Positions 3,528 to 41,018 of a DNA stretch of 62,713 bases are shown here, in pieces. The notes under the pieces are model-generated. The model was not told where the DNA came from. It saw only the letters and a list, made by a program, of their open reading frames with translations, and did no database searches. The position numbers were made by a program, and so were the translations under genes. The stretch is from Candidatus Woesearchaeota archaeon (GTDB lineage: Archaea > Nanobdellota > Nanobdellia > Pacearchaeales > GW2011-AR1): contig CAZSGW010000001.1 of NCBI GenBank assembly GCA_964606775.1, forward strand, positions 90,002-152,714. The letters run 5' to 3'. Position 1 is the first letter of the stretch, and each line of letters opens with the position of its first letter.

Positions 3528-3747
3528 ATTAATTAATCTCTTTTTTATAAAGAATACACGAAAATTTCATATATAAATTTAATTAAAATAAAAAGTCTGT
3601 TAAAAATATTTTAATCCAACAAACTCACAAAAATTTTTGAATTTACTAAAAATTCTAACAAAATGAGCAAAAAATACCACAATAATGTAACCCCTAAAAA
3701 ATGACAAGAAAACAACAAATTTATAAATACCAAAAACATCCAAAAAC

Positions 3748-8304: not shown

Positions 8305-8376
8305 AGCCTGTAGAGGGATTCGAACCCCCGACCTATTGCTTACAAGGCAACCGCTCTGCCACTGAGCTATACAGGC
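8305..8376 (-). tRNA. tRNA-Thr (anticodon UGU)
   Basis: The reverse complement folds as a cloverleaf: GCCTGTA-TA-GCTC-AGTGGCA-GAGC-G-GTTGC-CTTGTAA-GCAAT-AGGTC-GGGGG-TTCGAAT-CCCTC-TACAGGC. The acceptor stem is perfect and a TTCGAAT T-loop is present. The anticodon loop CT-TGT-AA gives UGU. It forms a GC-rich island in AT-rich DNA. No CCA is encoded. Confidence 0.9.
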
Positions 8377-8970: not shown

Positions 8971-8971
8971 T

Positions 8972-9283
8972 TTATTCTTGTACCTGTTTACCTGCCCTTA
9001 TACCTTTCTTTTGATAATGTGATTTCCCACACACTCCACAAGAGTACATAATATTTGTTTTTTTAGTTGTTTTTGTTTTTCTTTTAAACTTCGTAACCGC
9101 AGGTTTTGAACCCCACTTTCCTTTATTTCCAATTCCTCTACCAAGACCCCTAGATTTTGCTCTTGAAATAGAACCTCGAGTTAAAGTACCTCTCTTAGCT
9201 CCAGTACTAACTAATTTAATTTTATGTTCCGTTTTCTTCTTACAACTCGGACAATATCTATTTGTCTTTTTCGGAATCTTCAT
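8972..9283 (-). CDS. rpl44e: 50S ribosomal protein L44e (eL42)
   Basis: 103 aa, very basic. There are two Cys pairs (RYCPSCKKKTEHK and CGVCGKSHYQKKGIR), as in the L44e zinc-ribbon protein. Confidence 0.8.
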   Translation of the reverse strand: MKIPKKTNRYCPSCKKKTEHKIKLVSTGAKRGTLTRGSISRAKSRGLGRGIGNKGKWGSKPAVTKFKRKTKTTKKTNIMYSCGVCGKSHYQKKGIRAGKQVQE

Positions 9284-9333
9284 GATTTCATTAGATATTT
9301 TTGCTTTTTAAAACTTTTGAAAAACCTTTTAAA

Positions 9334-9355
9334 TTATGTTACTTTAGTAACATAA
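9334..9355. promoter_or_regulatory. perfect 10-2-10 palindrome just upstream of ORF 9357
   Basis: TTATGTTACT-TT-AGTAACATAA read directly. It ends 1 nt before the ATG at 9357 and lies just downstream of a TTTTAAATT TATA-like box (9327-9335). Confidence 0.5.
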
Positions 9356-9356
9356 A

Positions 9357-9737
9357 ATGAAATTAAATATCAAAACTCTCGGAATAGAATTCACATTCGA
9401 TTGCAATCTGAAAGGGTCAAAAAAAGTCAATTTTTTTAGAGAACTCTACGGATGCAAAAGAATATCTCACGGAGGAAAATACGTATACATAAAAGACGGG
9501 ATTCTTTCAAACATGAAATATCTAAAACCAACCCGTTCAACAATAATCCTCTCTATAAAAGATGCAAAAACCCTGAGAAAATTTTTCAAAAAAAATAAAA
9601 TAAATTTTAACGAAAAAATAATCTTCCTAAATAAAACCGAGTCAAAAGAACTCAACCTAGAGTTTCCGAATAATCTAGAAAAAATATATGAAGAACTGAA
9701 AGGAAACGAAAACCTAATGTTTAGTCTGGATATTTAA
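9357..9737 (+). CDS. hypothetical protein
   Basis: 126 aa ORF. No family recognised. Confidence 0.5.
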   Translation: MKLNIKTLGIEFTFDCNLKGSKKVNFFRELYGCKRISHGGKYVYIKDGILSNMKYLKPTRSTIILSIKDAKTLRKFFKKNKINFNEKIIFLNKTESKELNLEFPNNLEKIYEELKGNENLMFSLDI

Positions 9738-17530: not shown

Positions 17531-17896
17531 ATGAAAAAAAGAATAAAAAAACAAATCATCTGGCTAACACTAACTGCTTTAATTATGGCAATAGGCCTAG
17601 TACTTCTAAAATACCTCCCAATGCAAATCTTCGGAAAGAATATACTTTTTGACGCATCAGCACACATTGTAATAACAAGCTTCATCCTTTATACAATATA
17701 TTATTTCATAGATCAAAACAAAAATTGGACAACCCCCTATTTCATATTTTCTGCAATAATTTTAACAACAATTTCGATTCAAAGAATACTCAAAGACAAA
17801 CACAACGACATAGGAATAATGTTAGGATTTCTAATAGTAATAATCGCAATAGCAATTCCAAGATTTAAACAAATAAAGAAAAAATTGATATTCTAA
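17531..17896 (+). CDS. small polytopic membrane protein
   Basis: 121 aa with 3-4 hydrophobic helices. Confidence 0.5.
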   Translation: MKKRIKKQIIWLTLTALIMAIGLVLLKYLPMQIFGKNILFDASAHIVITSFILYTIYYFIDQNKNWTTPYFIFSAIILTTISIQRILKDKHNDIGIMLGFLIVIIAIAIPRFKQIKKKLIF

Positions 17897-17935
17897 AACA
17901 ATAATTCTTAAAAACAAACTTAGTTTTTTCGTATA

Positions 17936-18217
17936 ATGAGTCTAGAAAAAGAGGTAAAAATACCAGAACATCAAGAAAAATTAAAGAAAGAAATTCTCAA
18001 CGCAATACAAAACCTTCCAGACAACACATTAACACCTAACGGAAAACATATTCAAGCAACAAAAATGATTCCTATAAACACCTTCTATTTTGGACTAGAA
18101 GATAAATCACAACTAAAAATTCCAAAAGACGCAAAAAATATAGAAGAATACAAAACAACGTCTGCAACAGCATTTCAATATAAAGGTTTAAATTACTTTA
18201 TTGGCTTTAACAATTAA
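17936..18217 (+). CDS. hypothetical protein
   Basis: 93 aa ORF. Confidence 0.4.
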   Translation: MSLEKEVKIPEHQEKLKKEILNAIQNLPDNTLTPNGKHIQATKMIPINTFYFGLEDKSQLKIPKDAKNIEEYKTTSATAFQYKGLNYFIGFNN

Positions 18218-18462
18218 TGAAAAAATATAGAATCCTGATTTTATGGATAGGATTTATAACAATCATAATTCTAGGAGCGAGCGTAATAAATGAGATTCTA
18301 TTTCTAGTACTAAAGGAGAAAATAAATAATCTAGCTTTCAATCTAATCTCTTTCACACTAATTTTTTTGTTTATAACATTTTTATTCAAAATAAAACCCT
18401 TTAAAGAACTATCAGAAAACTTAGATAAACTTGAAAACAAACTCAAAAAGAAAAATCTATAA
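18217..18462 (+). CDS. small membrane protein
   Basis: 81 aa with two hydrophobic helices. Its start overlaps the stop of the preceding ORF (TAATG). Confidence 0.45.
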   Translation: MKKYRILILWIGFITIIILGASVINEILFLVLKEKINNLAFNLISFTLIFLFITFLFKIKPFKELSENLDKLENKLKKKNL

Positions 18463-18484
18463 ACTCAATTTCCCAAATAAGATC

Positions 18485-18625
18485 ATGGAAATAGAAGTAA
18501 TTTTAGAACCACAAGAAGAAGCAATTGAAAATATAAAAGAAGCATTAGAATTATGGCTTGAACCAGATCAAAACGAAATACTTGCTTTCAAAGACAATTT
18601 TGAAACTAAAAAAATAAGAATATAA
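18485..18625 (+). pseudogene. HicB-like antitoxin remnant
   Basis: Reading from the ATG at 18485 gives MEIEVILEP-QEEAIENIKEALELWLE... This keeps the first strand and the EEA..NI.EA.EL.LE helix of small HicB/UPF0150 proteins. It lacks the middle segment (DEDGGY...PGC.TQG). Confidence 0.35.
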
Positions 18626-18687
18626 TGGAACTTCCGCAAATTTCTGGAAAAATAATAAAGTTAACAATCCCTAATCACTCTAAATAA
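18625..18687 (+). pseudogene. HicA-like toxin N-terminal fragment (20 codons)
   Basis: ATG overlaps the previous stop (TAATG). The translation MELPQISGKIIKLTIPNHSK-stop has LP.ISGK..IK, the usual HicA start. The GSH catalytic part is missing. Confidence 0.35.
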
Positions 18688-18753
18688 AAAAAAGAACTCT
18701 AAATAGAATAATAAAAGATTCAGGATTAACAAAAAAAATTTTCAATAAATAAA

Positions 18754-19406: not shown

Positions 19407-19479
19407 AGCCCCGTAGTACAGTGGTCAAGTATACTGCCCTTTGAAGGCAGTGACCCCGGTTCGAATCCGGGCGGGGCTA
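19407..19479 (+). tRNA. tRNA-Gln (anticodon UUG)
   Basis: Cloverleaf: AGCCCCG-TA-GTAC-AGTGGTCAA-GTAT-A-CTGCC-CTTTGAA-GGCAG-TGAC-CCCGG-TTCGAAT-CCGGG-CGGGGCT-A. The A1-U72 first pair is typical of archaeal tRNA-Gln. The anticodon loop CT-TTG-AA gives UUG. Confidence 0.88.
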
Positions 19480-28700: not shown

Positions 28701-29945
28701 TTACCTACGGCTTACCAAAATAAAAAACATAATCAGAGAAATTCCTACAAACACCAAAACATAATTAAACAAATTCCTTGAGTTTCCAGAAGGTTCAGAA
28801 TAAACTTTTATACCAACACCTTCTTCCCCAGAAAAAACCTTCTCACCCTCTTGAATTTCAAATGAATCATCCAGCCTAAAAAAAACTCGACCATCATCCT
28901 CTTCCAAATCATAATAAATATCTTCAACCTTTAAGTAAACTCCCTCTCCTAAAAATAGAACATCTCCTTCAAACAGTTTTCCAGTTTCATCTCCCTCAAC
29001 AAATAATTTTACATAGCTAGATTTTATATGAGAGATTGAAATATCAAAATACTTTCCATAAAAATCAGCATCAATTTCATCATCAAAGTAAAGAATACAA
29101 TTATCCGAATTAGAACAATACGAAACGCTCCCATCACTTTCCTCTAAATCTTCTTCATCATAAACACATTCTCCTTTTTCACATCCAGAAATACATTCTT
29201 TATTTAAAGTCTTAAAATCTCCTCCATCACAATATCTCTCAACTAAAACATCTTCATCAATACAATAATCATTAAAACACTCTCCATCAATACAAACACT
29301 TCCAAAATCAAAATAATCAATTCCAGAATCAGAATCTAAACATTCATAACTAAGTTCCCCACAATAAAACCTAACCCTATAATCATGACAAAATCCTGAA
29401 TTATCATCATTCGAACAAAATAAACCCGAATTTAAATCACAAGTCAAATTCTGTCCAGTTTCATTCCAATCAACGCCTCCCAGAGTTTCACACTGAATCA
29501 AAGTTGGAGAATCACATATTTCTGTAGGATACTTATTCCTTATTTTACTAAGAGGCTCATAATCTCCATTTCCATTCACATTATCCATATCAAACCATTG
29601 CGTCCATGAAACTAATTCCCATTCACATCCATTTGTATTCAAACACTCAGACTTATCAAATCCTCCACAACTTCTATCTTTATCGAAACAAATTCCTGAT
29701 ACAGAATCATAGGAACAATAATCTGTCTGCGACTCACACATAAATTCATCGTAATTAAAGTTAGAACAATCATAATTAAAACAACTTTCAGATGCCCAAT
29801 AACAAACAGGGATAGAATTACAATCTAATTCAGAAAATTTAGAACAATCTGTTTTAAAAGTCTCCCCAGTACATATTCCTTCAGAAGAAACAAATCCAAA
29901 CAATAAAATTGTTAAAAATAAAAGCAAAAATATTTTTTTTACCAT
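28701..29945 (-). CDS. Cys-rich surface protein with a WxxW/CysD-like domain and a C-terminal TM anchor
   Basis: 414 aa. It has an N-terminal signal (MVKKIFLLLFLTILLFGFVSSEG), about 40 Cys, and a C-terminal NYVLVFVGISLIMFFILVSRR anchor. Domains are described in the findings. Confidence 0.75.
   Translation of the reverse strand: MVKKIFLLLFLTILLFGFVSSEGICTGETFKTDCSKFSELDCNSIPVCYWASESCFNYDCSNFNYDEFMCESQTDYCSYDSVSGICFDKDRSCGGFDKSECLNTNGCEWELVSWTQWFDMDNVNGNGDYEPLSKIRNKYPTEICDSPTLIQCETLGGVDWNETGQNLTCDLNSGLFCSNDDNSGFCHDYRVRFYCGELSYECLDSDSGIDYFDFGSVCIDGECFNDYCIDEDVLVERYCDGGDFKTLNKECISGCEKGECVYDEEDLEESDGSVSYCSNSDNCILYFDDEIDADFYGKYFDISISHIKSSYVKLFVEGDETGKLFEGDVLFLGEGVYLKVEDIYYDLEEDDGRVFFRLDDSFEIQEGEKVFSGEEGVGIKVYSEPSGNSRNLFNYVLVFVGISLIMFFILVSRR
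29361..29606 (-). other. WxxW (mucin CysD-type) domain-like segment
   Basis: aa 114-195: WTQWFDMDNVNGNGDYEPLSKIRNKYPTEICDSPTLIQCETLGGVDWNETGQNLTCDLNSGLFCSNDDNSGFCHDYRVRFYC. The motif order (WxxWfd.D.p.g.GD.E, C..P..i.C, tGQ...C....Gl.C.N.dq...C.dY.VRf.C) matches the WxxW/CysD pattern as I remember it from MUC2/MUC5AC and CILP. Confidence 0.6.
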
Positions 29946-29979
29946 AAAAGAACCAGAAAATCCCCGTTTTTAAAAACTT

Positions 29980-30792
29980 CTATAATAGAAATATAAGTAT
30001 TATAAAACTAATAAAGAAAACAGGCACATAAGGAATTCCTTCTCTAATGTATACATCCTTGTTCTTTTTCCTCAATAATTCGATATCTTTTTTATTCAAT
30101 CCATTCCAAGTCGCATTAATTTTTTTAGAACCAATCTTAACATCCCTATACAACCAATCACCTTCAGTTAATTTATTTGGAGAAATTTTTTTAACCATAC
30201 AACTTTCATCGACAGACTTTGCGGCTAAAAACAAATAAGGAACTAAAAATACCAAGACTGCAAAAAAAAGCAAACTACTTTCAACAAAAGAAAAAACAAT
30301 CATCACAATAGCTAAAATTAAAACACTAAAAACCAAAGTTTTATTTTTGTTAAATTGTTTAGAAAATTCTTTTCTAAATTTTTTGTAATTTCTAATCGCC
30401 AAATAACCGGTGGAAAATAAACCATACAATGCTCCACTAAACAAGAATAAAAGAATGAATGTAAAAAAAACATTTAAATTGCCTGAAAAATCCGGATAAA
30501 AAGCAAGAACAGGACCAATTGCAACAAACAACTTTGAATCTCCTCCTGCAAACATTCTTCCAAAATAAAGTAAATTACTAAACACAAAAAAAATTCCCAG
30601 TGCAATCAAACCCTGATAAAAAAATCCAAAATCCTCTCCAGAAAAAAGAGAATAAAAAAATCTAAAACCCAATGCAAAAATTATCAAAGAAAAACTAACC
30701 CAATTAGCAATTTCCCTCTTTCTTAAATCCTGTATACTTGCAACTAAAAGCCAAATAACCCCTAAAACAATTAATCCAATAACTTCAATCAT
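29980..30792 (-). CDS. A24-family prepilin/preflagellin peptidase (PibD/FlaK/EppA-like)
   Basis: 270 aa and polytopic. The first catalytic Asp context is SIQDLRKREIANWV and the second is FAGGDSKLF (GxGD-type). It is embedded among pilin-like genes. Confidence 0.8.
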   Translation of the reverse strand: MIEVIGLIVLGVIWLLVASIQDLRKREIANWVSFSLIIFALGFRFFYSLFSGEDFGFFYQGLIALGIFFVFSNLLYFGRMFAGGDSKLFVAIGPVLAFYPDFSGNLNVFFTFILLFLFSGALYGLFSTGYLAIRNYKKFRKEFSKQFNKNKTLVFSVLILAIVMIVFSFVESSLLFFAVLVFLVPYLFLAAKSVDESCMVKKISPNKLTEGDWLYRDVKIGSKKINATWNGLNKKDIELLRKKNKDVYIREGIPYVPVFFISFIILIFLL

Positions 30793-30953: not shown

Positions 30954-31622
30954 TTACTTCATAATCAAACATCTCTGTCCCGAACCTAAATCGTTCGCCA
31001 ACAAAGAAACATCATAAGCACCTTCTTCATTTGAAATTGATTGACTACTTCCCAAACACTCGCTATTCTCCCAATCACATCCAACCTCGATACAATCATC
31101 CGAGTTAGAAAATTCAGAACACTCTTTAAGTCCTTGAGACTTTGGAGCATCTATACATGCATCATTTATCCATTTACATCCTCTTAAAAGAGTACAATCA
31201 TCCGAAGTCAAAATATCTGAACAAGCCCCAATATTCTGGCTAACTTCTTTAATCTCACCTGTCTTTCCATTTATCTCTAAATTATTACAATTTTGTTTAC
31301 AGTCAAAATCCGATTCTTCAATACCATATTTCTCAAATTCATCGACGACCGCTAAAATAGCACAAGTAGTTTCAACTTCCTCTCCTTCAAATTTCAAATC
31401 CTGAGTCTTATAACAAAAATTAGTATCACCTCCAGTCGTAGCCGAAGCCATACAAGCATTTTTTATTTGATCAACATTATCTTGAGAAAGCCAAGGAGCA
31501 ATCTGTCCCCAACCTTGTGTAAAACCTATAATCAAAATAACAAGAATCGCAATCCCCAATACCAAAAGAATAATTGTACTAGTGCTCATACCTTGAGCCT
31601 TCTTATTACCTCTTTCTAACAT
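30954..31622 (-). CDS. class III signal-peptide (pilin-like) protein with Cys-repeat C-terminal region
   Basis: The track start at 31631 is a TTG; the first ATG is at 31620-31622. The N-terminus MLERGNKKAQGMSTSTIILLVLGIAILVILIIGF is followed by a Cys-rich ectodomain with CSDILTSDDCTLLRGCKWINDAC and CSEFSNSDDCIEVGCDWENSEC repeats. Confidence 0.65.
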   Translation of the reverse strand: MLERGNKKAQGMSTSTIILLVLGIAILVILIIGFTQGWGQIAPWLSQDNVDQIKNACMASATTGGDTNFCYKTQDLKFEGEEVETTCAILAVVDEFEKYGIEESDFDCKQNCNNLEINGKTGEIKEVSQNIGACSDILTSDDCTLLRGCKWINDACIDAPKSQGLKECSEFSNSDDCIEVGCDWENSECLGSSQSISNEEGAYDVSLLANDLGSGQRCLIMK

Positions 31623-31717
31623 ACTAAACAATAGATTATTTTATTTATAAAACTTTCTCAATCATAATCCCAATAAAAAAATAGAATTACTCAAATAAAT
31701 AACAAACTTAAATAGAA

Positions 31718-32071
31718 TCAATCTGCATAATGCTTTGCTGAAAACAAAAATTCTTTATTTTTCCAATCGTCAAAATCAAATTGAAAATTTGTTTTAGTTT
31801 TATTAATTTCAAAATATTCATCTTCACCCTCAACATAATAAAAATCTCCCTCTCCCAATTCAGATAAAATTGAATTCTTATCATAACCTTCGCTAACATA
31901 CACCTCATATTTTTCAACATTGGTGTCAAGTTTTTCCATTAAATCAAGTCCGACAAAATTTCTCTCCATTCGAACTTCAGCAATATAAAAACTCAAAAGA
32001 GCCAAACTACAAATTGCAAAAACTCCGATTACCAAAATTGTTATAGGAACATCCCCTCTCTTATTTTTCAT
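31718..32071 (-). CDS. class III signal-peptide (minor pilin-like) protein
   Basis: 117 aa. MKNKRG-DVPITILVIGVFAICSLALLSFY. It overlaps the upstream gene by 11 nt. Confidence 0.6.
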   Translation of the reverse strand: MKNKRGDVPITILVIGVFAICSLALLSFYIAEVRMERNFVGLDLMEKLDTNVEKYEVYVSEGYDKNSILSELGEGDFYYVEGEDEYFEINKTKTNFQFDFDDWKNKEFLFSAKHYAD

Positions 32072-32402
32072 CTTCCTCCAGATTAGTTTTTAATTCTTCG
32101 AACTCCTTTTCAAAATCTCCATAAAAACTTTTATTCTCATCCATCTCTTCCAACTTAGAATACAAGAATTCTTTATCCTCTCCCTCATCTAAAGAAAAAT
32201 AAGTTATCAAAGACTTAGTCATCAACAAATCAGAATTTCTCGAATAAATATCTGACAAACCAGAACTCTTAGCATACTCAAATTCATTCTGTTTAGATAG
32301 AAGATTAGTCGCAAAAATCGCCAAGAACAAAATAAAAATAATAACAAGAGTTGCAACTATCCAAGTCATCGTTTCTCCTGCCTGCCCAGATTTATTTAAC
32401 AT
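32061..32402 (-). CDS. class III signal-peptide (minor pilin-like) protein
   Basis: 113 aa. MLNKSGQAGETMTWIVATLVIIFILFLAIF. It overlaps both neighbours by 11 nt. Confidence 0.55.
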   Translation of the reverse strand: MLNKSGQAGETMTWIVATLVIIFILFLAIFATNLLSKQNEFEYAKSSGLSDIYSRNSDLLMTKSLITYFSLDEGEDKEFLYSKLEEMDENKSFYGDFEKEFEELKTNLEEDEK

Positions 32403-32892
32403 TTTGTTTTACTTTCCTTACAATAGATAGGATTTTTACTTCATACAAATTTTTATTTTCATCCAAGGAATAAAATTTTCTCTCAACACACTTAGACAAT
32501 TCTTCATAATCCTCATCTTCAATATTACAATCCAATTTCAGATTAAAATTGCCTTCCTTTGCAATCAAATGATTTTTACCATTCGAAAAATTAAGAATAT
32601 TCAATTCTAAATAATATTCCGAACCTTTTTCAGAATCACTTTCAAAAACCTCTTCCTTAAACTTACAATAATTTAAAACATTAAAATCTTTCTCAAAAAT
32701 TTCCGAATTCAAAACTTCCTGTTCTGAAATACATCTTGTAACTTTATTAACCATCAAATTGCCTTCAATTTCACGAACATCATAAGGAGAATTATAAAAA
32801 ATGCTTACCATCGAGACAACTGCCCCAGCTACAATCAATAAAACTGCAAACCAATAAACAGAAATTATCTTATCTGCCCCTTTTTTGTTCAT
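32392..32892 (-). CDS. class III signal-peptide (pilin-like) protein
   Basis: 166 aa. MNKKGADKIISVYWFAVLLIVAGAVVSMV. There is an ATGA overlap with the upstream gene at 32889-32892. Confidence 0.6.
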   Translation of the reverse strand: MNKKGADKIISVYWFAVLLIVAGAVVSMVSIFYNSPYDVREIEGNLMVNKVTRCISEQEVLNSEIFEKDFNVLNYCKFKEEVFESDSEKGSEYYLELNILNFSNGKNHLIAKEGNFNLKLDCNIEDEDYEELSKCVERKFYSLDENKNLYEVKILSIVRKVKQNVK

Positions 32893-33302
32893 TTTTCATT
32901 TACACTGATAATGTAATTACCAGTATTTTCATTTAATTCATTTTTTTCCGGATAAGCCGTTACAAAAACGTCATTAAAGAAAGAATATTCATAGCCTCCC
33001 TTCTCACTAAGCCTCACAAAAACAGAATTCTCCTTAATTAAAACAATTTCCTCAAACATCAAATCATTCTTCTCAGACAATTCCAATCCTTTTTCCATAT
33101 TAATTTTTATTTGGGTAACAGGCTCTGCAGAATCTATCAATAAAGCAATCTGTTTAGAATAACTTTGTTCCATTAGAACAGCTCCAGTACCCTGTTTCCA
33201 TAAAAAGACCATTAAGATTGTAAGAAATAAAGAATTTAAAACAATAAAAATAACATTCTCCACAAGAACCATTCCTTTTTTATTTTTAGATACCTTAAAC
33301 AT
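32889..33302 (-). CDS. class III signal-peptide (pilin-like) protein
   Basis: The track start at 33308 is a TTG; the ATG at 33300-33302 gives MFKVSKNKKG-MVLVENVIFIVLNSLFLTILMVFLW. An SD-like AGAGGT lies 9-14 nt upstream. Confidence 0.6.
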   Translation of the reverse strand: MFKVSKNKKGMVLVENVIFIVLNSLFLTILMVFLWKQGTGAVLMEQSYSKQIALLIDSAEPVTQIKINMEKGLELSEKNDLMFEEIVLIKENSVFVRLSEKGGYEYSFFNDVFVTAYPEKNELNENTGNYIISVNEK

Positions 33303-33338
33303 ATTCAAAACCTCTTCACATATTTAAACAGAATAAAT

Positions 33339-33358
33339 AATTAATAAAACTTTGTAAA
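33339..33358. promoter_or_regulatory. 20-nt exact repeat in an internal pilin-operon promoter region
   Basis: AATTAATAAAACTTTGTAAA is identical to 38604-38623. It sits in the only sizeable gap of the pilin gene string (33303-33366). Confidence 0.5.
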
Positions 33359-33366
33359 AACAAAAA

Positions 33367-34314
33367 CTAAGCAAGGGTTTCAATATCTGCACAATTCAAA
33401 ATTTTAAAACTATCCGAATCCGCCTTTTGAATAGTCGGGGCCATAAATTCATTTTTAATTCCATCACCTTTAACAATTATTGCTCCAATCTGAGGTTCAA
33501 AAGATTCTGCAATTTCTCCTCCTGCAGTTAATGTAGCTGCCCCTGTTCCAAAAATAATTGCACTTGTAACCAAATTAACTCCTGGTATAAATAAACTAAC
33601 AACCCCTACTCCAGTAACAGCACCACCAAACCACTTATAAAAATTTCCAACTTCACTAGTAATTCCCATAATAACATAGTATTGTTCTCCAACATCAATA
33701 TCTCCAAAAGTCCCAATATTCTCCGGATTATTTTCACCTCCAATAATCTCCTGTTTCAAAGATTGGATATCATTAGTTCCTAAAATATACTCTGCATATG
33801 TCTGGTCTCCAGAATAATTATTTTTACTCATATAATCATAAAGACCATCTTTACTTATCTCTCCTTCAACTTCATTCAAATTATTCAAACTATCATCAAA
33901 ATAAATTTGTGAACAAATAGAACAATAATTTTTTTTAGATGCTTTATCTCCAACATAATCCAATTTTCCTGCTCCAAACATCCACCAACAAACAGCCATT
34001 TCCTCAGAAAGAACTTCATAAAGTTCATCCCTCGTTTCAACTTCAATCTCTTCGGGATTTGTCATTCCCTCGCAAGTTCCATCCTCCGTGATACAAATAT
34101 AAGTTCTTTCACATTGAAGACTGGTGGACTTTGGAGTCAAAGCCTGAGACTTAGTTAAAACAGAATTATGGCATAACTCTCTCGCAGATTCCTGTCCAAA
34201 ATTCAAACCAAATAAAAAATATAAAACAACGATAAAACTAGTTATCAGAATAATTAAAATAATTATTTGCTGTGTACTTATTTCTCCTTTTTTTCCAAAA
34301 AGATTTTTTCTCAT
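33367..34314 (-). CDS. class III signal-peptide protein with large ectodomain and extra C-terminal hydrophobic segments
   Basis: 315 aa. MRKNLFGKKGE-ISTQQIIILIILITSFIVVLYFLF is followed by a Cys-containing globular part, then a Gly-rich hydrophobic stretch GGAVTGVGVVSLFIPGVNLVTSAIIFGTGAATLTAGG. Confidence 0.6.
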   Translation of the reverse strand: MRKNLFGKKGEISTQQIIILIILITSFIVVLYFLFGLNFGQESARELCHNSVLTKSQALTPKSTSLQCERTYICITEDGTCEGMTNPEEIEVETRDELYEVLSEEMAVCWWMFGAGKLDYVGDKASKKNYCSICSQIYFDDSLNNLNEVEGEISKDGLYDYMSKNNYSGDQTYAEYILGTNDIQSLKQEIIGGENNPENIGTFGDIDVGEQYYVIMGITSEVGNFYKWFGGAVTGVGVVSLFIPGVNLVTSAIIFGTGAATLTAGGEIAESFEPQIGAIIVKGDGIKNEFMAPTIQKADSDSFKILNCADIETLA

Positions 34315-34416
34315 CTATGCAACCCCCAATTTTTTTAAAGCGAAGTATAACCCAACCGAAACAATTCCAAAAAAGACAATCCATATTAAATATTTTATTA
34401 CATTATCAAGATTCAT
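34315..34416 (-). CDS. 33-aa single-TM micro-ORF
   Basis: Not in the track. MNLDNVIKYLIWIVFFGIVSVGLYFALKKLGVA. Its ATG overlaps the stop of gene 34413-34892 (ATGA), and its TAG directly abuts the ATG of 33367-34314. Confidence 0.5.
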   Translation of the reverse strand: MNLDNVIKYLIWIVFFGIVSVGLYFALKKLGVA

Positions 34417-34892
34417 TTTACTTCCTCAAGTTTAATTCCTTCTTCCATTTCAATAACCTCAATATCCGTAGCCCCTTCATTTGTTTCTTTAATTTCAATA
34501 ATTTCAAATCCCAAAAGATTTTCAACGACTAAACATCTTCCATCTTTCTGACACTCTTTTAATTGTCTATTTCCAAAAACTCCAGCATAATTGGTAGAAA
34601 TTTCATCACAAATGCAAATACATTTCTTTCCAGCACACTGATTAGGTTTACTCTTTTCACTAAAATTAAAAATACTCCATCCAGTAGGAGTCACCCCCTT
34701 CAACTCTCCGCCCCCTTCACCAATTTTTATTTCAATCTGTTCTAAAGTGGCTTCAGCCTGATTTTGTTTTTTTTCATCCAAATTAGAAAAATATAAAGAA
34801 GTCAAAAAATAAGCCAAAAAACCAATACAAATAACTGCAATAACAATTTTTAAAGTTTCTTCAGCCAACAAAAAACCTTTCTTATTTCTCAT
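34413..34892 (-). CDS. type IV pilin-like protein (candidate major pilin)
   Basis: The track start at 34904 is a TTG; the ATG at 34890-34892 overlaps the upstream stop (ATGA). MRNKKG-FLLAEETLKIVIAVICIGFLAYFL has G then F at +1 and E at +5, as in bacterial type IV prepilins. The small globular head carries 6 Cys. Confidence 0.7.
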   Translation of the reverse strand: MRNKKGFLLAEETLKIVIAVICIGFLAYFLTSLYFSNLDEKKQNQAEATLEQIEIKIGEGGGELKGVTPTGWSIFNFSEKSKPNQCAGKKCICICDEISTNYAGVFGNRQLKECQKDGRCLVVENLLGFEIIEIKETNEGATDIEVIEMEEGIKLEEVK

Positions 34893-35038
34893 ATTAGACT
34901 CCAAAAAATCCCTCCCAGTCCACTAAAAAAAGCATTAATTTTATCTCTAAAGAAAAAATAAAGTGCGATAACAACTGTAACAAAAACAGCTACTCCCAAA
35001 ATAATTTTTATTAATCTACTTATTGCTAACTCTGCCAT
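34889..35038 (-). CDS. 49-aa single-TM micro-ORF
   Basis: Not in the track. MAELAISRLIKIILGVAVFVTVVIALYFFFRDKINAFFSGLGGIFWSLI, translated base by base. It is coupled on both sides (TAATG at 35036-35040, ATGA at 34889-34892). Confidence 0.5.
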   Translation of the reverse strand: MAELAISRLIKIILGVAVFVTVVIALYFFFRDKINAFFSGLGGIFWSLI

Positions 35039-35208
35039 TATGTTCTGAATAACCCCTTAATTTTATCAATCAATGAAAAGCCTTGTTCTCTCAATAAAAA
35101 AATAGTCGTCATAATAATTGCCAGAACAGCAATACCAATCAACAACCATGGCAAATATTCTGAAACTAAACCTCTCTTCTCTTTCAAATTAAAACAACTC
35201 TTTTTCAT
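35038..35208 (-). CDS. 56-aa class III signal-peptide-like micro-ORF, first gene of the pilin operon
   Basis: Not in the track. MKKSCFNLKEKRG-LVSEYLPWLLIGIAVLAIIMTTIFLLREQGFSLIDKIKGLFRT. A KRG motif precedes the hydrophobic helix. Confidence 0.5.
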   Translation of the reverse strand: MKKSCFNLKEKRGLVSEYLPWLLIGIAVLAIIMTTIFLLREQGFSLIDKIKGLFRT

Positions 35209-35401: not shown

Positions 35402-36391
35402 ATGGAAATATTAACAAAATTGTCAAAACTCCCTTTAATAGGAAAAGTAGCGGGAGTGGTTGGAACAGTAGCAATTATTTCAGCTCCAATAATTTACTCA
35501 ATTACCGGAAATAAACAAGAAGCAAAAGAGAAAAAAATAGAAAGAAAAGAATGGTGGGAAGAACAATCAGAAAAATCAAAAGTAGTTTTTGGTGAAGGGT
35601 ATCTAAAAGATGGCTATTCTGTTTTTGATCCTAACCCCGAATATGAACCAAGAACAAAAGTTCAAGATGCTGTAAAAACAGGACTTTATGTTTTATCAGA
35701 CAACCTCTCTGGATCTTCTGAGATTTTAGATGGAATAGAATTAGCTATTGAAACAGAAAACAAAATAAAAGAAAATCTTGAAACCAAAGCTCAAAAAAAA
35801 CCAATTAAAAAAGAAAAAACAAAGGGAACATTTACAGACAAAAGAGATAATCAAGAATATAAATGGGTAAAAATAGGAGACCAAATTTGGATGGCTGAAA
35901 ATTTAAATTATTCAACTTCTTACGGTTCTTGGTGTTATGATAATAAAAAATCGAATTGTGAAACATACGGAAAACTTTACAATTGGAATGTAGCTCTAAA
36001 ATCTTGTCCTAAAGGATGGCATCTGCCTTCAAATGATGATTGGGAAAAACTTGGAAAATACATTAGTAAAGATAATGGAGGATATAATCAAACTAAAGGA
36101 GATTGGGAAAAAATAGGAATGCATCTTAAATCTAAAACAGGTTGGAGATTACCTTACATAAGTTCAGTAAAAGGAACTGATGATTATGGATTTTCCGCAC
36201 TAGGAGGGGGTTATCGTAGTGATGATGGAAAACTAATGAGCGGCTTAAAAATTATGGGAAATTGGTGGACTTCAAGTAAAAAAGATATAAAGAATGCTTT
36301 TTCACGTACTATATATGATGAAGGAAAATTATTCAAAGAAAGTTATCCTAAACAAGGAGGATATAGTGTCCGTTGCATAAAAAATAAATAA
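35402..36391 (+). CDS. membrane-anchored protein with a FISUMP (Fibrobacter succinogenes major paralogous) domain
   Basis: 329 aa with an N-terminal TM (GKVAGVVGTVAIISAPIIYSI). The C-terminus FTDKRDNQEYKWVKIGDQIWMAENLNY...CYDNKKSNCETYGKLYNWNVALKSCPKGWHLPSNDDWEKL...GTDDYGFSALGGGYR...WWTSS...GYSVRCIK matches the FISUMP consensus almost position by position. Confidence 0.8.
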   Translation: MEILTKLSKLPLIGKVAGVVGTVAIISAPIIYSITGNKQEAKEKKIERKEWWEEQSEKSKVVFGEGYLKDGYSVFDPNPEYEPRTKVQDAVKTGLYVLSDNLSGSSEILDGIELAIETENKIKENLETKAQKKPIKKEKTKGTFTDKRDNQEYKWVKIGDQIWMAENLNYSTSYGSWCYDNKKSNCETYGKLYNWNVALKSCPKGWHLPSNDDWEKLGKYISKDNGGYNQTKGDWEKIGMHLKSKTGWRLPYISSVKGTDDYGFSALGGGYRSDDGKLMSGLKIMGNWWTSSKKDIKNAFSRTIYDEGKLFKESYPKQGGYSVRCIKNK

Positions 36392-38572
36392 CTACAAATT
36401 ACCCAATACAACTGAGCTCAAGATAAACAATACCAAAACAGCAATTAAAGCAACCACAAAGTATAACCCGATACCTCGCTTCAAATTCACCCCAATTTTA
36501 TGAGCTTTCTCAAGTTTATCTTCTCCTGAATCTACTGTAACCAAAGTCCCAGTTAAAATAAAAATTATCTGAACTAAATAAATTCCAATCGCAATTTGCA
36601 AATAATAAGGAGGAATCATAGAACTCATACTGAACGTCTCCAAGAAACCTCCAAGACCTCCAAGAGCTTCAGCACTTCCTGTTGCACCTTTTGCAATTTC
36701 TAATTTATTCAAAATAGAAGTTATCATTGCTGCTAAACCAACAACAATACCTGAAAGCAAAGGCGCTAAAAAAGTCATATTACTCTTCATACTAGAAACT
36801 GTTTCCGCAAGTAAATCTTTCAACCTCTGGGTTATTTTGCTTATATTCTTCGCATACTCTGAAATACTCATTAAACTTATTGCTGCAATCTTCAAACCTT
36901 TCTTAGAAGCTTCAACTAAAATTCTCATACTACTCGCAATCAAATCCGAAGGGTAATACTGAATAGCCCCTCTCCTCCTATCAAAAATTGCTTTCTCAAC
37001 ACTCATCCCCATTTGGCGGATATTATAATTAACCCTCTTAAAAAATTCTCCAGTCCTCAAGCCTTTTGCAGATTCAGCAACTTTTCCAAAAACAAGCTCG
37101 GGAGGAACACCATTACCCAAACGATTTCCTAATTGAAATAAAGAATTATTAAATTCGGCCTCTAATTGTTTAGTTTTCTTTCTTTCCTTAATTAGCTCCT
37201 TAGTCCTTTCCCTATAAGCAATAGAATAAAATAAAGCCACTCCAAGAGGAATGAACAAACTCAAAAAAACAGCGCCAATACCATAGGGTCCAGAACCATC
37301 TTCCTTAAAATCAAAAAAGTAAACTCTTCCATCAGGATCAAAAGAAGTCAAACCAACCTGAGATAAAGTAAAATCCTTTTGCATTCCAAGCGCCTCTGGA
37401 ATTGGAGTAAACTGGAAAATCAAAGGAAGAAGACCTAAAATCAAAAAAGGTAAACAAATCACAAAGGCAGTAGTATAAGGTTTCTTACTCTTAAATTTAT
37501 AATAAAGAGGGTTTCTTTCAAGTAACTTGGACTCTCCATAACCTCCTGGCCTCAACAACAAAATTTTATCTATCATAAAAAATGCAATAAAAGGAATCAG
37601 TAAATTATACAAAACAAAAATATGGATTGCTGTAATGAAATCACCCACTAAGGCGGAAGCCAAAGGAATCAAAGCAATACCTAAAACTGGAAGCATAACT
37701 GCCAACATGTAAACATTAGTCAAGGGAGACTTTACATTGTGACTAAATTTCAACATCTTATCGTAAACCCCGTCTAAAACAACTTGTAAAGACTTTTCCA
37801 AAGTGGAAATCCTTCGAGAATTATCTGGCTCGAATAAACTACTCTCAATTAAATGAAAAGCTTCAATAAATTCAACAGAATAATCTCTCCAAGTTTCAAG
37901 ATAACCATCTAAACTCTCCTTAATGGTAGAAAACTTTCCAACCTCCACATCATAAAACACCTTCTTGAAATCAAGAGCTAAAGGATCTTGCAAATTATCA
38001 GAAGTGAATGCTATTGCCTTTTCTAAATTAGGAGTATGTCTCATATAAACAACAACATACAACAAAGCTGGAACCATTTGACTCGAGGCCTTAAGTCTCC
38101 ACTTATTAGCCAATCTTGCAGGATAACCATTAACATAATAAAACAAAAAAACGGAGGCAAACAAAACCAACATAAAGAAACCAAGAGGAAATGCGGAAAT
38201 ACTTCCTTTAATCAAAACAACAGCAATAGAAGATAATAAACCAACAAAAAATATTGCCAAAAAAGACATAACTCCTAATGCTAAAGCCTCCGAAGGCCTA
38301 ACATCTAAATGTGCAATATCCAATTGTTTTTGAACTTTTTGAGCATCTTTCTCAGAAACCTTAAAATTAATTGATTTTCCCAAACTCTTAGCCAATTTCT
38401 CATATCTTGAAAGTTCAGGAGACATCTCTTTCTTAAAACCAACATAAGAACTACTATAAGCCGAAGAACTTGCAGAAGGCGATGAATCTATTTTTTTCTC
38501 AATCTGCCCCCCATATTTCTTGAGAACATCCTTCACGCTGGGTCTTTTACCTCTCGGAATTCTTCTTGCCAT
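36392..38572 (-). CDS. polytopic membrane protein, candidate pilus platform (TadC/FlaJ/PilC-like)
   Basis: 726 aa. Many TM helices are separated by soluble helical regions. It is divergent from the secretion ATPase and flanked by pilin genes. GAGGTGA (SD) lies 5 nt upstream of the ATG. The assignment rests on context and topology, not on a recognised motif. Confidence 0.5.
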   Translation of the reverse strand: MARRIPRGKRPSVKDVLKKYGGQIEKKIDSSPSASSSAYSSSYVGFKKEMSPELSRYEKLAKSLGKSINFKVSEKDAQKVQKQLDIAHLDVRPSEALALGVMSFLAIFFVGLLSSIAVVLIKGSISAFPLGFFMLVLFASVFLFYYVNGYPARLANKWRLKASSQMVPALLYVVVYMRHTPNLEKAIAFTSDNLQDPLALDFKKVFYDVEVGKFSTIKESLDGYLETWRDYSVEFIEAFHLIESSLFEPDNSRRISTLEKSLQVVLDGVYDKMLKFSHNVKSPLTNVYMLAVMLPVLGIALIPLASALVGDFITAIHIFVLYNLLIPFIAFFMIDKILLLRPGGYGESKLLERNPLYYKFKSKKPYTTAFVICLPFLILGLLPLIFQFTPIPEALGMQKDFTLSQVGLTSFDPDGRVYFFDFKEDGSGPYGIGAVFLSLFIPLGVALFYSIAYRERTKELIKERKKTKQLEAEFNNSLFQLGNRLGNGVPPELVFGKVAESAKGLRTGEFFKRVNYNIRQMGMSVEKAIFDRRRGAIQYYPSDLIASSMRILVEASKKGLKIAAISLMSISEYAKNISKITQRLKDLLAETVSSMKSNMTFLAPLLSGIVVGLAAMITSILNKLEIAKGATGSAEALGGLGGFLETFSMSSMIPPYYLQIAIGIYLVQIIFILTGTLVTVDSGEDKLEKAHKIGVNLKRGIGLYFVVALIAVLVLFILSSVVLGNL

Positions 38573-38729: not shown

Positions 38730-41018
38730 ATGTTTATGCAATTTGAACAAGGGGCGCCTTTGTATTCTACAGAGGTTTCTAGAGAAGGGGGTGAAGATGT
38801 TTTATACATCAATTATCTAGGAGCTCCTTTCGTTCCAAGCCTAGCCGAACACGATTTTGTTATGGAAAAAACTGTGGATTCTTTAATGGAAAATCCAAAT
38901 GTTTCAAGAATTGTTTTTGTTCAGCAAAAAAACTACAACTATGATTTTGAAGAAACGAGGATGTTATTAGAACTTGCCGAATTTTACACCTACTTAATTA
39001 AACAAGAAAAAATTTTATCTCAAGAAAAAATAGGTAATTCTCAATTTTTTTCTAAAAGATATAACTCCCTTTTCTCATTTTTACTTTTATTGAAGAAAGA
39101 TCCTCTTGCAAGTTATAGCGAATTAAAAAAAATGATTTATGAACAAAGAATTTTTTCAGAAAAAGTTGGAGGTCATCTCAAATTAGACGTAGAAAATTAT
39201 CTAAACCTGCTTGAAAAAATATTATTTCTTTTTGAAAAAATTAAAATTATTGAAAATATAAAACCTTTTATAGGAGACTATTCCCGAGGAGACAGAGAAA
39301 TTTACTCCCGTCTGTTCAGGGCAGATGTTATTCCAAATTTTTCTTTTACACGTTTAGTCTCAGATTTGCCCAATGATGCAGAAATTATAGACCAATATGA
39401 AATAGTTGGTGAAGATTACGATAAATCTCTCGTTACAATCTTACGATTAAAAGGAGAATCTAAATTAATGTACCATTTAACTCCTCCAGAACATACACTT
39501 GACGAAGACCACAACACGCTTTTAAATTTAGCGAGAGGTGTTTTGATTGAACACCAACCCAAAGCCGAAGAATTTACAGATGTCGAAAGAATCAGACAGG
39601 TTTTCTTCAACATCGCAAGAGATTTATTAAGGGATTTAGGGGAAAGTAAAGGAATAATTTTATCTTATCCAGATTTAAATAAATTAGCAAAAATCTTGGT
39701 TAGAAGCACTATTGGTTTTGGCCTAATAGAGGTTTTGTTACAAGATAAAAAAATTCACGATATTTCTCTAAACTCTCCAATCCCTCAGGTTCCAGTTTAT
39801 ATTAGACACAGAGATTATGATGAATGCCTTTCAAATATTCGTCCAAGTCAGGAAGACGCAGACTCTTGGGCTGCAAAATTTAGGATGATTTCAGGAAGGC
39901 CATTAGATGAAGCAAATCCCATTTTAGATACTCAATTAGAAATTGGAAAACTAAGGGCCAGAATTGCAATCATCCAAAAACCTCTCTCAGTAGATGGATT
40001 GGCCTATTCAATTAGACGTCACAGAGAATCTCCATGGACTCTCCCTCTTTTTGTCCAAAACAGAATGCTTAATCCTTTCGCCGCAGGGTTATTTAGTTTT
40101 TTAATTGACGGCTCGAGAACGTTATTGGTTGCTGGAACTAGAAGTTCAGGAAAGACATCTTTGTTAGGAAGTTTATTATTGGAAATTATTCCTAAATTTA
40201 GAATTATTGTTGTTGAAGATACATCAGAATTGCCTGTTGAATCTTTGAGAAAATTAGATTATAATATTATTCGAATGTTAGTTCGTTCTGCTATGATGAA
40301 AGGAGAAGCGGGAGTTTCTGCGGATGATGGGATTAGGACAAGTTTACGTTTGGGTGATTCGGCTTTGATAGTTGGAGAGATTAGAAGTCAGGAAGCTAAA
40401 GCACTTTATGAGGCAATGAGGGTTGGAGCATTAGCAAACGTGGTTGCCGGAACAATTCACGGTGCTTCACCGTATGGGGTTTTCGATAGGGTTGTTAATG
40501 ATTTAAATGTACCTGCTACATCCTTCAAAGCTACCGATTTGATAACCGTTTGCAATCCAGTTAAATCTCCAGATGGCTTACAATCGTGGAAGAGGTGTGT
40601 AAGATTATCTGAGATTAGAAAACACTGGAAAGAGGATCCTCTAAAAGAACAAGGTTTTGTAGATTTAATGAAATATAATGTGGAAAAAGACGAGCTTGAA
40701 CCCAGTGAAGATTTAATCAATGGAGATAGCGAGATAATAAAAGACATTGCTTCAAGCGTTAAAGGATGGGCGGGCAATTGGGATGCTGTTTATGATAATG
40801 TTTTACTAAGAGCGAAAATGAAAAAAGAAATTGTAGAAGTTTCAAAGAAAGCTGGAAATCCAGACATCCTTGAAGCAAAATTTAATACTCTTGCAAATCA
40901 TCAGTTTCATAAAATTTCTTCAGAAGTTTCTAAAGAGATTGGAATTCCTTCTAGCGAGAGAGTTTTTCCTGAGTGGCAAAAATGGTTGAATCAGGAAGTT
41001 AAGAAATGGGGCATTTAG
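38730..41018 (+). CDS. type II/IV secretion family ATPase (FlaI/VirB11/TadA-like) with a long N-terminal extension
   Basis: 762 aa. Walker A is LLVAGTRSSGKTSLLGSLL and Walker B is RIIVVEDTSEL. GEIRSQEA and AGTIHGASP (His box) are also present. A second ATG at 38736 is also possible. Confidence 0.85.
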   Translation: MFMQFEQGAPLYSTEVSREGGEDVLYINYLGAPFVPSLAEHDFVMEKTVDSLMENPNVSRIVFVQQKNYNYDFEETRMLLELAEFYTYLIKQEKILSQEKIGNSQFFSKRYNSLFSFLLLLKKDPLASYSELKKMIYEQRIFSEKVGGHLKLDVENYLNLLEKILFLFEKIKIIENIKPFIGDYSRGDREIYSRLFRADVIPNFSFTRLVSDLPNDAEIIDQYEIVGEDYDKSLVTILRLKGESKLMYHLTPPEHTLDEDHNTLLNLARGVLIEHQPKAEEFTDVERIRQVFFNIARDLLRDLGESKGIILSYPDLNKLAKILVRSTIGFGLIEVLLQDKKIHDISLNSPIPQVPVYIRHRDYDECLSNIRPSQEDADSWAAKFRMISGRPLDEANPILDTQLEIGKLRARIAIIQKPLSVDGLAYSIRRHRESPWTLPLFVQNRMLNPFAAGLFSFLIDGSRTLLVAGTRSSGKTSLLGSLLLEIIPKFRIIVVEDTSELPVESLRKLDYNIIRMLVRSAMMKGEAGVSADDGIRTSLRLGDSALIVGEIRSQEAKALYEAMRVGALANVVAGTIHGASPYGVFDRVVNDLNVPATSFKATDLITVCNPVKSPDGLQSWKRCVRLSEIRKHWKEDPLKEQGFVDLMKYNVEKDELEPSEDLINGDSEIIKDIASSVKGWAGNWDAVYDNVLLRAKMKKEIVEVSKKAGNPDILEAKFNTLANHQFHKISSEVSKEIGIPSSERVFPEWQKWLNQEVKKWGI

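Follow-up and report, generated by a model that had tools for sequence, protein, structure and literature searches.

A WxxW domain with the mucin CysD fold in a predicted surface protein next to a type IV pilus-like locus of a DPANN archaeon

The stretch of DNA analysed here (the window; 62,713 nucleotides, positions 90,002 to 152,714 of contig CAZSGW010000001.1, assembly GCA_964606775.1, Candidatus Woesearchaeota archaeon) carries at 28701-29945, on the minus strand, a gene for a Cys-rich protein of 414 residues (P0001, 28 cysteines, as listed and translated), in which residues 114-195 (29361-29606, minus strand) form a WxxW domain of the kind known from the CysD domains of gel-forming mucins. 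The gene adjoins a predicted type IV pilus-like locus. A sequence-only reading, made without database searches, had proposed a CysD-like WxxW domain at this position; the 82-residue peptide which it quoted is exactly residues 114-195, and its coordinates of the open reading frame (ORF) are correct, but the minus-strand orientation had gone unnoticed (the plus-strand translation of 28701-29945 is full of stops).

The domain is a genuine member of the WxxW family and has the CysD fold. In a profile hidden Markov model search, it matches Pfam PF13330 (Mucin2_WxxW) with an E value of 9.8e-23 (81.1 bits against a cut-off of 22.4), and the alignment spans the model from end to end (positions 1-88 of 88). 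Among the sequences of PDB chains only mucin CysD domains were matched, with E values from 6.9e-9 to about 4-7e-4 (MUC5B 8oer, 6.9e-9; MUC5AC 8ov0, 6.9e-6; MUC2 6tm6 and 6tm2, ~4-7e-4), each of the six archaeal cysteines being aligned there with a mucin cysteine. The AlphaFold2 model of residues 105-200, calculated from a six-row alignment, is of moderate confidence (pLDDT 72, pTM 0.63) and consists mainly of beta strands. When compared with the PDB in Foldseek, its best five matches are all CysD domains (MUC5B, MUC5AC CysD7 and three MUC2 chains; probability 1.0, TM scores 0.59-0.71), in agreement with the CysD-like fold proposed earlier; the sixth match has an E value of 0.6, and no known carbohydrate-binding module (CBM) fold is found among the structural matches.

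Six ordered motifs had been named for the domain. Five are present exactly (GDYE, CDSPTLIQC, TGQNLTC, GLFCSN and CHDYRVRFYC), while the first, WTQWFDMDNV, departs from the family pattern with V123 at the position that holds proline in 299 of 329 aligned domains. This alignment comprises 329 domain instances from the retrieved proteins and loci. Positions of the WxxW motif (W114-T-Q-W117) and of the C-terminal strand (C186-H-D-Y-R-V-R-F-Y-C195) are kept in 290-314 of them, namely W114 in 291, W117 in 306, Y189 in 314 and R192 in 290; of the other residues, G174 is kept in 328 domains, G127 in 318, E130 in 309, D128 in 300 and D121 in 231. The family-wide conserved positions also include D119, N179 and D188.

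The crystal structure of MUC2 CysD1 shows a previously unseen fold, described in 2020 and said to be unique to CysD domains: a small two-sheet beta-sandwich with two Ca2+ ions and a Trp-Arg/Lys ladder based on the WxxW motif (PMC7599080). By homology, a putative Trp/Arg ladder of W114/W117 with R190/R192 should stabilise the fold of the archaeal domain. A putative Ca2+ site would be formed by the acidic motif F-D-x-D ... G-D-x-E together with D188; the five residues concerned (D119, D121, D128, E130 and D188) are all present in the window domain and conserved family-wide, with V123 in place of the usual proline next to them. C-mannosylation of the WxxW tryptophans has been proposed for metazoan proteins and is not expected in archaea. 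That these tryptophans are conserved in organisms for which C-mannosylation is not known speaks for a primarily structural role, in the ladder, and against one as a glycosylation signal.

The window domain contains six cysteines, at positions 144, 152, 169, 177, 186 and 195. All six positions are occupied by cysteine in 191 of the 329 domains (CCCCCC), and only the first and the last three in 112 (C--CCC); C152 and C169 are gained or lost together and are therefore presumably paired with each other. In MUC2 the pair C1365-C1379 closes the docking loop, and the mucin CysD domain has ten cysteines in five conserved disulfides (PMC11912381). By a hand count on the PDB sequence alignment, the C1365-C1379 pair appears to match C177-C186. 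With these two pairs assigned, C144-C195 is left as the third, so that the predicted disulfides are C144-C195, C152-C169 and C177-C186. An extra cysteine, no more than 3 residues before the first tryptophan, is found in ~60% of the scanned domains, and the metazoan-type examples that were read also carry a second cysteine after the last one; the window domain has neither. It corresponds to the conserved core of the mucin domain minus the two extra metazoan disulfides (three instead of five).

The other segments of the protein, all on the minus strand, are less clearly defined. A Sec-type signal peptide is predicted at residues 1-21 (29883-29945; MVKK, a hydrophobic core and SSE/G) from hydropathy and from a confident helix of residues 2-19 in the full-length AlphaFold2 model. 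Read as a pattern, the N-terminus (MVKKIFLLLFLTILLFGFVSS/EG) is Sec-like and lacks the KKG/KRG and the long hydrophobic stretch of the neighbouring pilin-like ORFs. Residues 22-112 (29610-29882; pLDDT ~30) form a region with 12 cysteines, in which the motif scan found two copies of C-x(8,9)-C-x(5,6)-C-x-[WY]-x(5,7)-C. The WxxW domain is followed by an 8-Cys module at residues 196-262 (29160-29360; C-x-D-x-D-x-G ... L-x-E-x-x-C ... C-x-x-G-C-x-x-G-x-C), recognised by alignment and belonging to no Pfam family. Next come an acidic linker and a beta-rich stalk, residues 263-390 (28776-29159), assigned by composition (35 Asp and Glu in 128 residues; low AlphaFold2 confidence), and finally a C-terminal transmembrane anchor with a terminal RR, residues 391-414 (28704-28775; hydropathy, helix 389-413 with pLDDT 71-84). 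Outside the WxxW domain, neither Pfam nor NCBIfam has a family that matches any part of the protein, and NCBIfam contains no model of the protein itself. The full-length model is confident only at the signal peptide, the WxxW domain and the transmembrane helix and, because of its low confidence elsewhere, no fold is assigned to the other three regions.

The protein is predicted to be Sec-exported, tethered to the membrane by its C-terminal helix and shown on the cell surface, as the sequence-only reading had supposed for a Cys-rich surface protein. A matching C-terminal anchor, ending in ...IIIRKRRR, is present in the orthologue P0002 from an independent assembly of another sample (L001, Logan ERR15087767). 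A segment homologous to residues 263-390 is found in P0002, L023 and P0150. The cassette of the WxxW domain and the 8-Cys module recurs in P0002, P0139, P0090 (twice), the Woesearchaeota loci L003, L022 and L028, and eight metagenome loci (L040, L051, L060, L064, L075, L085, L098 and L099).

The surrounding genes are those of an archaeon. They encode aEF-1beta, a HIT protein, RPA, RadA, ribosomal S3Ae, GINS51, SRP54/FtsY, a RIO kinase, a Cdc45/GAN-like DHH protein, eIF2alpha, UDG and a FlaK-type prepilin peptidase, and RadA is 80-84% identical to proteins of metagenome-assembled genomes (MAGs) labelled Pacearchaeota, Nanoarchaeota or Nanoarchaeia, the closest named ones. The host is therefore a DPANN archaeon of the Pacearchaeota/Woesearchaeota group, and the archaeal assignment made from the sequence stands. 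The guanine-plus-cytosine (GC) content is flat along the window (~0.30-0.34); the mean is 0.317 and the WxxW gene, with 0.310, has z scores of -0.27 for GC and -1.5 for GC at third codon positions (GC3). The same gene order is present in L001: pilin-like genes, prepilin peptidase, WxxW gene, HIT, aEF-1beta, an inserted Peptidase_M23 gene that is absent from the window, RPA and RadA.

Directly upstream of the WxxW gene, in the same orientation and 34 nt apart, lies the gene of a prepilin/preflagellin (class III signal) peptidase (29980-30792, minus strand; Pfam Peptidase_A24, 1.5e-10; NCBIfam FlaK_Arch, 1.1e-9, below the family cut-off). In the spacer between the two (29946-29979, minus strand), direct reading finds TTTTTAAAAA ~26 nt upstream of the ATG, which may be an archaeal TATA box and may provide the WxxW gene with its own promoter and a leaderless or short-leader transcript. 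A promoter and terminator scan, which covered only the bacterial (sigma-70) consensus, gave counts equal to the shuffled expectation. Further upstream, at 30954-35208 on the minus strand, there are nine small ORFs (30954-31631, 31718-32071, 32061-32402, 32392-32892, 32889-33308, 33367-34314, 34413-34904, 34889-35038 and 35038-35208) without a Pfam family, whose translations begin in a pilin-like manner with a short basic stretch ending in KKG, KRG or AQG and then ~20 hydrophobic residues. All nine have counterparts in L001 (61-77% identity) and less well conserved ones in two more distant relatives, L033 (GCA_964653605.1) and L035 (GCA_050302495.1). A polytopic membrane protein of 726 residues with many hydrophobic segments and no family match (36392-38572, minus strand) is, from its position, probably the filament assembly platform; in L033 its gene adjoins that of the ATPase, and in L001 and L035 it occupies the same end of the pilin array. 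A FlaI/TadA-type type IV filament ATPase is encoded at 38730-41018 on the plus strand (Pfam T2SSE, 5.7e-14; NCBIfam TadA-family, 3e-36, and FlaI, 9.5e-36, both below the family cut-offs). Judged from these predicted products, the peptidase, the pilin-like ORFs, the 726-residue protein and the ATPase constitute a type IV pilus-like locus, and the proximity to pilus genes noted earlier is borne out.

Several other features of the neighbourhood deserve description. The pilin-like ORF at 30954-31631 (minus strand), by the peptidase gene, has a Cys-rich C-terminal extension of ~100 residues with two copies of C-x8-C-x5-C-x-W-x5-C, a motif of which the N-terminus of the WxxW protein likewise has two copies. 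Homology of the two regions was considered and rejected (BLAST E 0.27, not significant); only the motif pattern is shared. The orthologues in L033 and L035 have only 106 and 116 residues and no extension, while that in L001 has it. Within the pilus locus, a FISUMP/Fib_succ_major protein is encoded at 35402-36391 on the plus strand (Pfam, 1.5e-32; TIGR02145, 9e-49). Its gene is absent from the syntenic L001, L033 and L035, has a low GC3 (z -2.0) and is probably a further accessory surface gene acquired by transfer. In L035, the gene of a 793-residue Laminin_G_3 protein (2237-4618; GCA_050302495.1) interrupts the orthologous array of pilin genes in its middle; the pilus locus seems to collect differing accessory surface proteins by lineage. 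Genes of the VKOR family stand beside the RIO kinase and SRP54 genes in three relatives (L033, 19912-20331; L034, 20156-20575; L035, 19359-19784), and the counterpart of this site in the window (17531-18750) contains only small hydrophobic ORFs without cysteines. Two tRNA genes, Thr-TGT (8305-8376, minus strand) and Gln-TTG (19407-19479, plus strand), are the sole Rfam matches at gathering level in the window.

The WxxW gene is the fastest-evolving gene of the locus. Between the window and L001 the two WxxW proteins (P0001 and P0002) are 40-46% identical, against 61-89% for the flanking proteins (726-residue membrane protein 89%, RadA 81%, peptidase 76%, pilin-like ORFs 61-77%), and P0002 differs in module content by additional N- and C-terminal modules. 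In both assemblies the gene stands beside the prepilin peptidase gene. It is absent from this slot in three more distant relatives (L033, L035 and JGI 3300072015) which keep the operon together with HIT, aEF-1beta, RPA and RadA; there the peptidase gene borders directly on HIT or is separated from it by no more than a 52-codon ORF. In L033 and L035, the two with DNA available, a tblastn search for the WxxW gene detected nothing. Most simply, the gene would have been gained once, by the common ancestor of the window and L001 lineages; repeated loss is the alternative.

To place the domain in its family, 1.84 billion representative proteins were searched exhaustively, which gave 1521 matches at E<=1e-3, 634 at <=1e-10 and 115 at <=1e-30. 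The leading matches are mostly multi-repeat proteins with up to 32 repeats, and among the proteins scanned or named are TIL or EGF domain proteins and fish, mollusc, brachiopod, tunicate and cnidarian names. Numerically, then, the family is dominated by multi-repeat metazoan-type proteins, as the sequence-only reading had stated. The best single-domain matches to the window are P0139 (56% identity) and P0148 (52%), which are short, single-copy and signal-peptide-bearing; identity reaches ~46% with metazoan-type and 47% with bacterial domains. Word-indexed searches were of limited use, as the full-length query found one relative and the domain-profile query yielded short proteins only.

A scan seeded with sequence patterns and covering each GTDB species by one genome (185,579 genomes) found 31 WxxW loci. 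The archaeal carriers are four Woesearchaeota MAGs with five loci (UBA12459, Zod_Metabat.644, binchicken_co100_462 and co211_210). The bacterial ones include Cellvibrio mixtus J3-8 and Teredinibacter sp. ISS155 (neither labelled as a MAG), several Cellvibrionaceae, Agarilytica, Alcanivoracaceae, Hyphobacterium, Algimonas, Robiginitomaculum, Parvularculaceae and other Alphaproteobacteria including Hyphomonadaceae (two on complete chromosomes), Myxococcota, Chloroflexota, Thioploca and Parabeggiatoa. Nine of the 10 scanned GTDB proteins reach PF13330 at E<=1e-15, in architectures such as Peptidase_S8 with WxxW, WxxW with I9, S8 and FG-GAP, GH43 with ricin lectins and three WxxW domains, and Metallophos with PPC and WxxW. 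JGI metagenomes contributed 75 further loci (33 with GC <0.40 and 19 with GC >=0.50), with mostly intact ORFs, which adjoin ordinary cellular genes, e.g. those of ribosomal L3/L4 and ArgRS. Since no more than one or two peptide patterns served as seeds, the locus counts are lower bounds. The presence of the same domain, sparsely, in other archaea and in bacteria means that the fold is not confined to animals, contrary to the assumption in the literature searched; the domain is a portable extracellular module in a sparse prokaryotic branch of the WxxW family.

Three sets of loci in this collection are described separately. The 1099-residue protein of Teredinibacter sp. ISS155 (L029, 3352-6651) is the clearest case of WxxW on a carbohydrate-active enzyme; it consists of GH43, four ricin-type lectin repeats and three tandem WxxW domains, continues into a poly-serine linker of ~70 residues and a short Cys/Trp-rich C-terminal segment, and is followed ~2.5 kb downstream by further WxxW copies (8849-9448, tblastn). 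In L064, L069 (JGI Ga0265322, Ga0265323), L036, L037 and P0148, a short basic stretch precedes a hydrophobic helix of at least 20 residues (MENKAGFYIVFIVAIVGLIG..., MNKKGKSAVIFGLIVALGLVAF...). By resemblance to the pilin-like ORFs of the window, WxxW may be fused to pilin-like or signal-anchor N-termini in some of these metagenomic proteins; L037, with HU-like and integrase genes nearby, may be bacterial. Pilus genes were looked for, and not found, in the short flanks available around the metagenome WxxW loci and two WxxW proteins with pilin-like N-termini. The GTDB locus L006 (2494-3588 of SSGX01000062.1, 'Neisseriales bacterium Bin_45_1') was rejected as bacterial evidence. It has a GC of 0.32 and four tandem WxxW repeats in one frame, with 13 in-frame TAA/TAG codons where Gln or Glu is expected and a single terminal TGA. 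This pattern fits a ciliate-type genetic code, so L006 is probably a mis-binned eukaryotic contig; if eukaryotic, it would place the WxxW domain in a non-metazoan eukaryote.

Taken as a whole, we consider it fairly probable that P0001 is a surface-anchored WxxW protein serving as a horizontally acquired accessory binding or adhesion module at the 3' end of the pilus operon. The protein would be exported by Sec and tethered to the surface of the DPANN cell by its C-terminal helix, where the WxxW domain would most likely act as a rigid binding or adhesion module. The variable loop closed by C177-C186 is the likely contact surface, as is the equivalent loop of MUC2 CysD1, and the gene would be lineage-specific cargo gained horizontally at the 3' end of the type IV pilus operon. 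The adhesion or matrix role suggested in the sequence-only reading is plausible. A binding or adhesion function is argued from four points: the predicted surface display of the protein, the occurrence of bacterial WxxW domains at targeting-module positions on secreted enzymes, the docking of MUC2 CysD onto other domains via the loop matching C177-C186, and the character of the gene as the fastest-diverging and most modular one of a surface-filament locus. For DPANN archaea of the Pacearchaeota/Woesearchaeota group, a dependence on attachment to other cells is generally assumed. A fast-evolving accessory surface protein at a pilus locus is, for DPANN biology, a candidate host-attachment factor.

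A number of observations weigh against this reading. The near-invariant proline of the calcium loop is replaced by V123, and the full-length AlphaFold2 model (seven-row alignment, mean pLDDT 45) is uninformative outside the WxxW domain. The signal, as predicted, is of the Sec type and not of the pilin type (class III), so P0001 is not a pilus subunit, and since three relatives keep the operon without the gene it would not be a core pilus gene and any link to the pilus would be optional. In GTDB, none of the further archaeal WxxW loci is flanked by pilus genes. No disulfide-forming enzyme of the VKOR type was found in the window, including the position where relatives have one, so that the oxidation route for a surface protein with 28 cysteines is not visible in the window. 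As regards horizontal acquisition, no deep node of the tree described below reached 50% support.

A narrower possibility, which we regard as doubtful although it has some appeal, is that WxxW is specifically a carbohydrate-binding module that targets its protein or enzyme to a glycan surface, and that the archaeal protein is a lectin-type adhesin. The Teredinibacter protein with its GH43 domain and ricin-type lectin repeats points in this direction, and many of the bacterial carriers (Cellvibrio, Cellvibrionaceae, Agarilytica) are polysaccharide degraders; modules at such a position in glycoside hydrolases are usually carbohydrate-binding. However, subtilases and a phosphoesterase carry the domain as well, the model of the domain finds no known CBM fold, and the documented contacts of MUC2 CysD are of the protein-protein kind (PMC7599080).

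Still less probable, in our opinion, is that the domain is a mere rigid structural or spacer element of an S-layer-like envelope protein, with no specific ligand and only incidental proximity to the pilus genes. The build of P0001, in which disulfide-rich modules follow one another on an acidic stalk anchored in the membrane, would suit such a role, and the absence of the gene from relatives with the same operon, together with the distance of the other archaeal loci from recognisable pilus genes, agrees with it. A pure spacer is, on the other hand, less likely on the secreted enzymes that bacterial copies ride on, and the protein is the fastest-evolving of the locus (46% against 61-89% for its neighbours), with modules gained and lost between close relatives, which is typical of interacting proteins and not of scaffolds.

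As to the origin of the accessory adhesion module favoured here, identity to animal domains and the patchy prokaryotic distribution leave horizontal transfer between domains of life as the only reasonable explanation. A viral vector was considered, and the IMG/VR scan found no WxxW relative. The sequence-only reading had offered two possibilities, transfer into a host-associated archaeon or an unrecognised prokaryotic reservoir of the fold, and had suggested a phylogeny for the direction. A neighbour-joining tree of 57 labelled domains (300 bootstraps) was built; it supports shallow groups only, e.g. that of the Woesearchaeota loci L022, L023 and L028 at 97%, and a larger unlabelled tree was equally uninformative. 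With no deep node supported, neither prokaryotic monophyly nor a direction of transfer is claimed. The reservoir is the better supported of the two, with 31 GTDB and 75 metagenome loci in prokaryotic architectures.

A recent direct transfer of a mucin/CILP-type domain from an animal host to its archaeon is, by comparison, very improbable. The numerical dominance of metazoan-type multi-repeat proteins, the identity of up to ~46% to their domains and the patchiness of the prokaryotic distribution (31 loci in 185,579 species genomes) would be compatible with it. But the composition of the gene is fully that of its genome, the nearest relatives (52-56% identity) are prokaryote-style single-domain proteins, and the extra metazoan cysteines are absent. 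The domain is, moreover, already diversified within Woesearchaeota: at least two divergent groups, with six and four cysteines, can be told apart among the archaeal copies, and the tree supports the L022/L023/L028 group at 97%. The description of the archaeon as host-associated finds no support either: MAG and sample names suggest groundwater, spring and marine water for the related loci, and nothing in the data points to an animal-associated habitat. Even though L006 illustrates that binning errors occur in this family, an assembly chimera or a eukaryotic contaminant in the archaeal contig can be dismissed for practical purposes, since the composition is uniform, with the GC and GC3 of the gene inside the window range (a check that the earlier reading had named), the reading frame runs continuously into archaeal-style modules on both sides, and the gene occupies the same position in L001.

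One could go further and regard WxxW/CysD as an older prokaryotic module for extracellular binding, stabilised by Ca2+ and serving on adhesins of episymbiotic DPANN archaea as well as on enzymes that aquatic bacteria secrete. Early animals would have captured it and, by adding two disulfides and repeating it in tandem, made it into the cross-linking domain that mucins and CILP have; here it would be the domain of a pilus-locus adhesin for attachment to host cells. We put this forward as speculation with a small chance of being right.

What is new in the locus, as predicted from its sequence, is a minimal three-disulfide core of the domain, a new architecture and a domain of life not previously credited with the fold. 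An evolutionary survey places the appearance of CysD in Bilateria (Lang et al. 2016, PMC4948705), against which cnidarian proteins also carry the WxxW domain, and no mention of prokaryotic WxxW domains was found in the literature searched. The call itself can be made with a routine Pfam search, and proteins of this kind already bear precomputed PF13330 tags in public collections; no more than two source names were seen for prokaryotic members, both of them 'hypothetical protein' at NCBI. Extracellular adhesion domains common to animals and microbes also have precedents, which limits the finding. A minimal natural core, present in archaea and bacteria with ~40-45% identity to animal domains, nevertheless lets mucin biologists separate the roles of the WxxW ladder and of calcium in the fold from the needs of C-mannosylation or cross-linking, and the locus raises the question of inter-domain transfer of extracellular matrix modules.

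Among known systems, the CysD domains of the gel-forming mucins MUC2, MUC5AC and MUC5B (6tm6, 6tm2, 7a5o, 8ov0, 8oer) have the Pfam family and the fold in common with the window domain, together with WxxW, the acidic calcium-loop motif, G-[LF]-x-C-x-N, C-x-D-Y-x-V-R-F-x-C and six aligned cysteines. The identity to human mucin CysD is only 24-30%, and the C177-C186 loop has 8 residues between its cysteines against 13 in MUC2. Mucin CysD domains stand in a VWD-C8-TIL context and are flanked by Pro/Thr/Ser-rich (PTS), O-glycosylated regions, whereas the window protein has no Pfam matches to VWD, C8 or TIL and its flanks are Cys-rich and acidic, not Pro/Thr/Ser-rich. With six cysteines and without this context, the domain is to be classed as a member of the WxxW/CysD fold and not as a canonical ten-Cys mucin CysD.

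The non-mucin WxxW proteins of metazoans (CILP-like and 'mucin-5AC-like'; brachiopods, molluscs, tunicates, fish and cnidarians) belong to the same Pfam family, with identity up to ~46%, and are short, with WxxW often the sole recognisable domain. Unlike the window protein they usually have tandem repeats, and many of them combine a four-Cys core with a cysteine before the first tryptophan and another after the last cysteine (C-W-T-x-W ... R-F-x-C-P-C); the window domain lacks both of these and retains the C152/C169 pair. That a domain of mucus proteins can also occur in secreted bacterial proteins of quite different architecture has a precedent in the unrelated FCGBP_N, which metazoan mucus proteins share with bacteria and which was not found in Archaea (PMC4948705). 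The uncharacterised prokaryotic WxxW proteins resemble the window protein in the single or few copies of the domain, the lack of a cysteine before the first tryptophan and its use as an extracellular accessory module, but their partners are subtilase, GH43/ricin or metallophosphoesterase domains, many bacterial copies are four-Cys, and none of the GTDB loci adjoins a pilus operon. The likeness is greatest among the DPANN proteins, which have in common with the window protein the WxxW and 8-Cys cassette and the beta-rich C-terminal segment.

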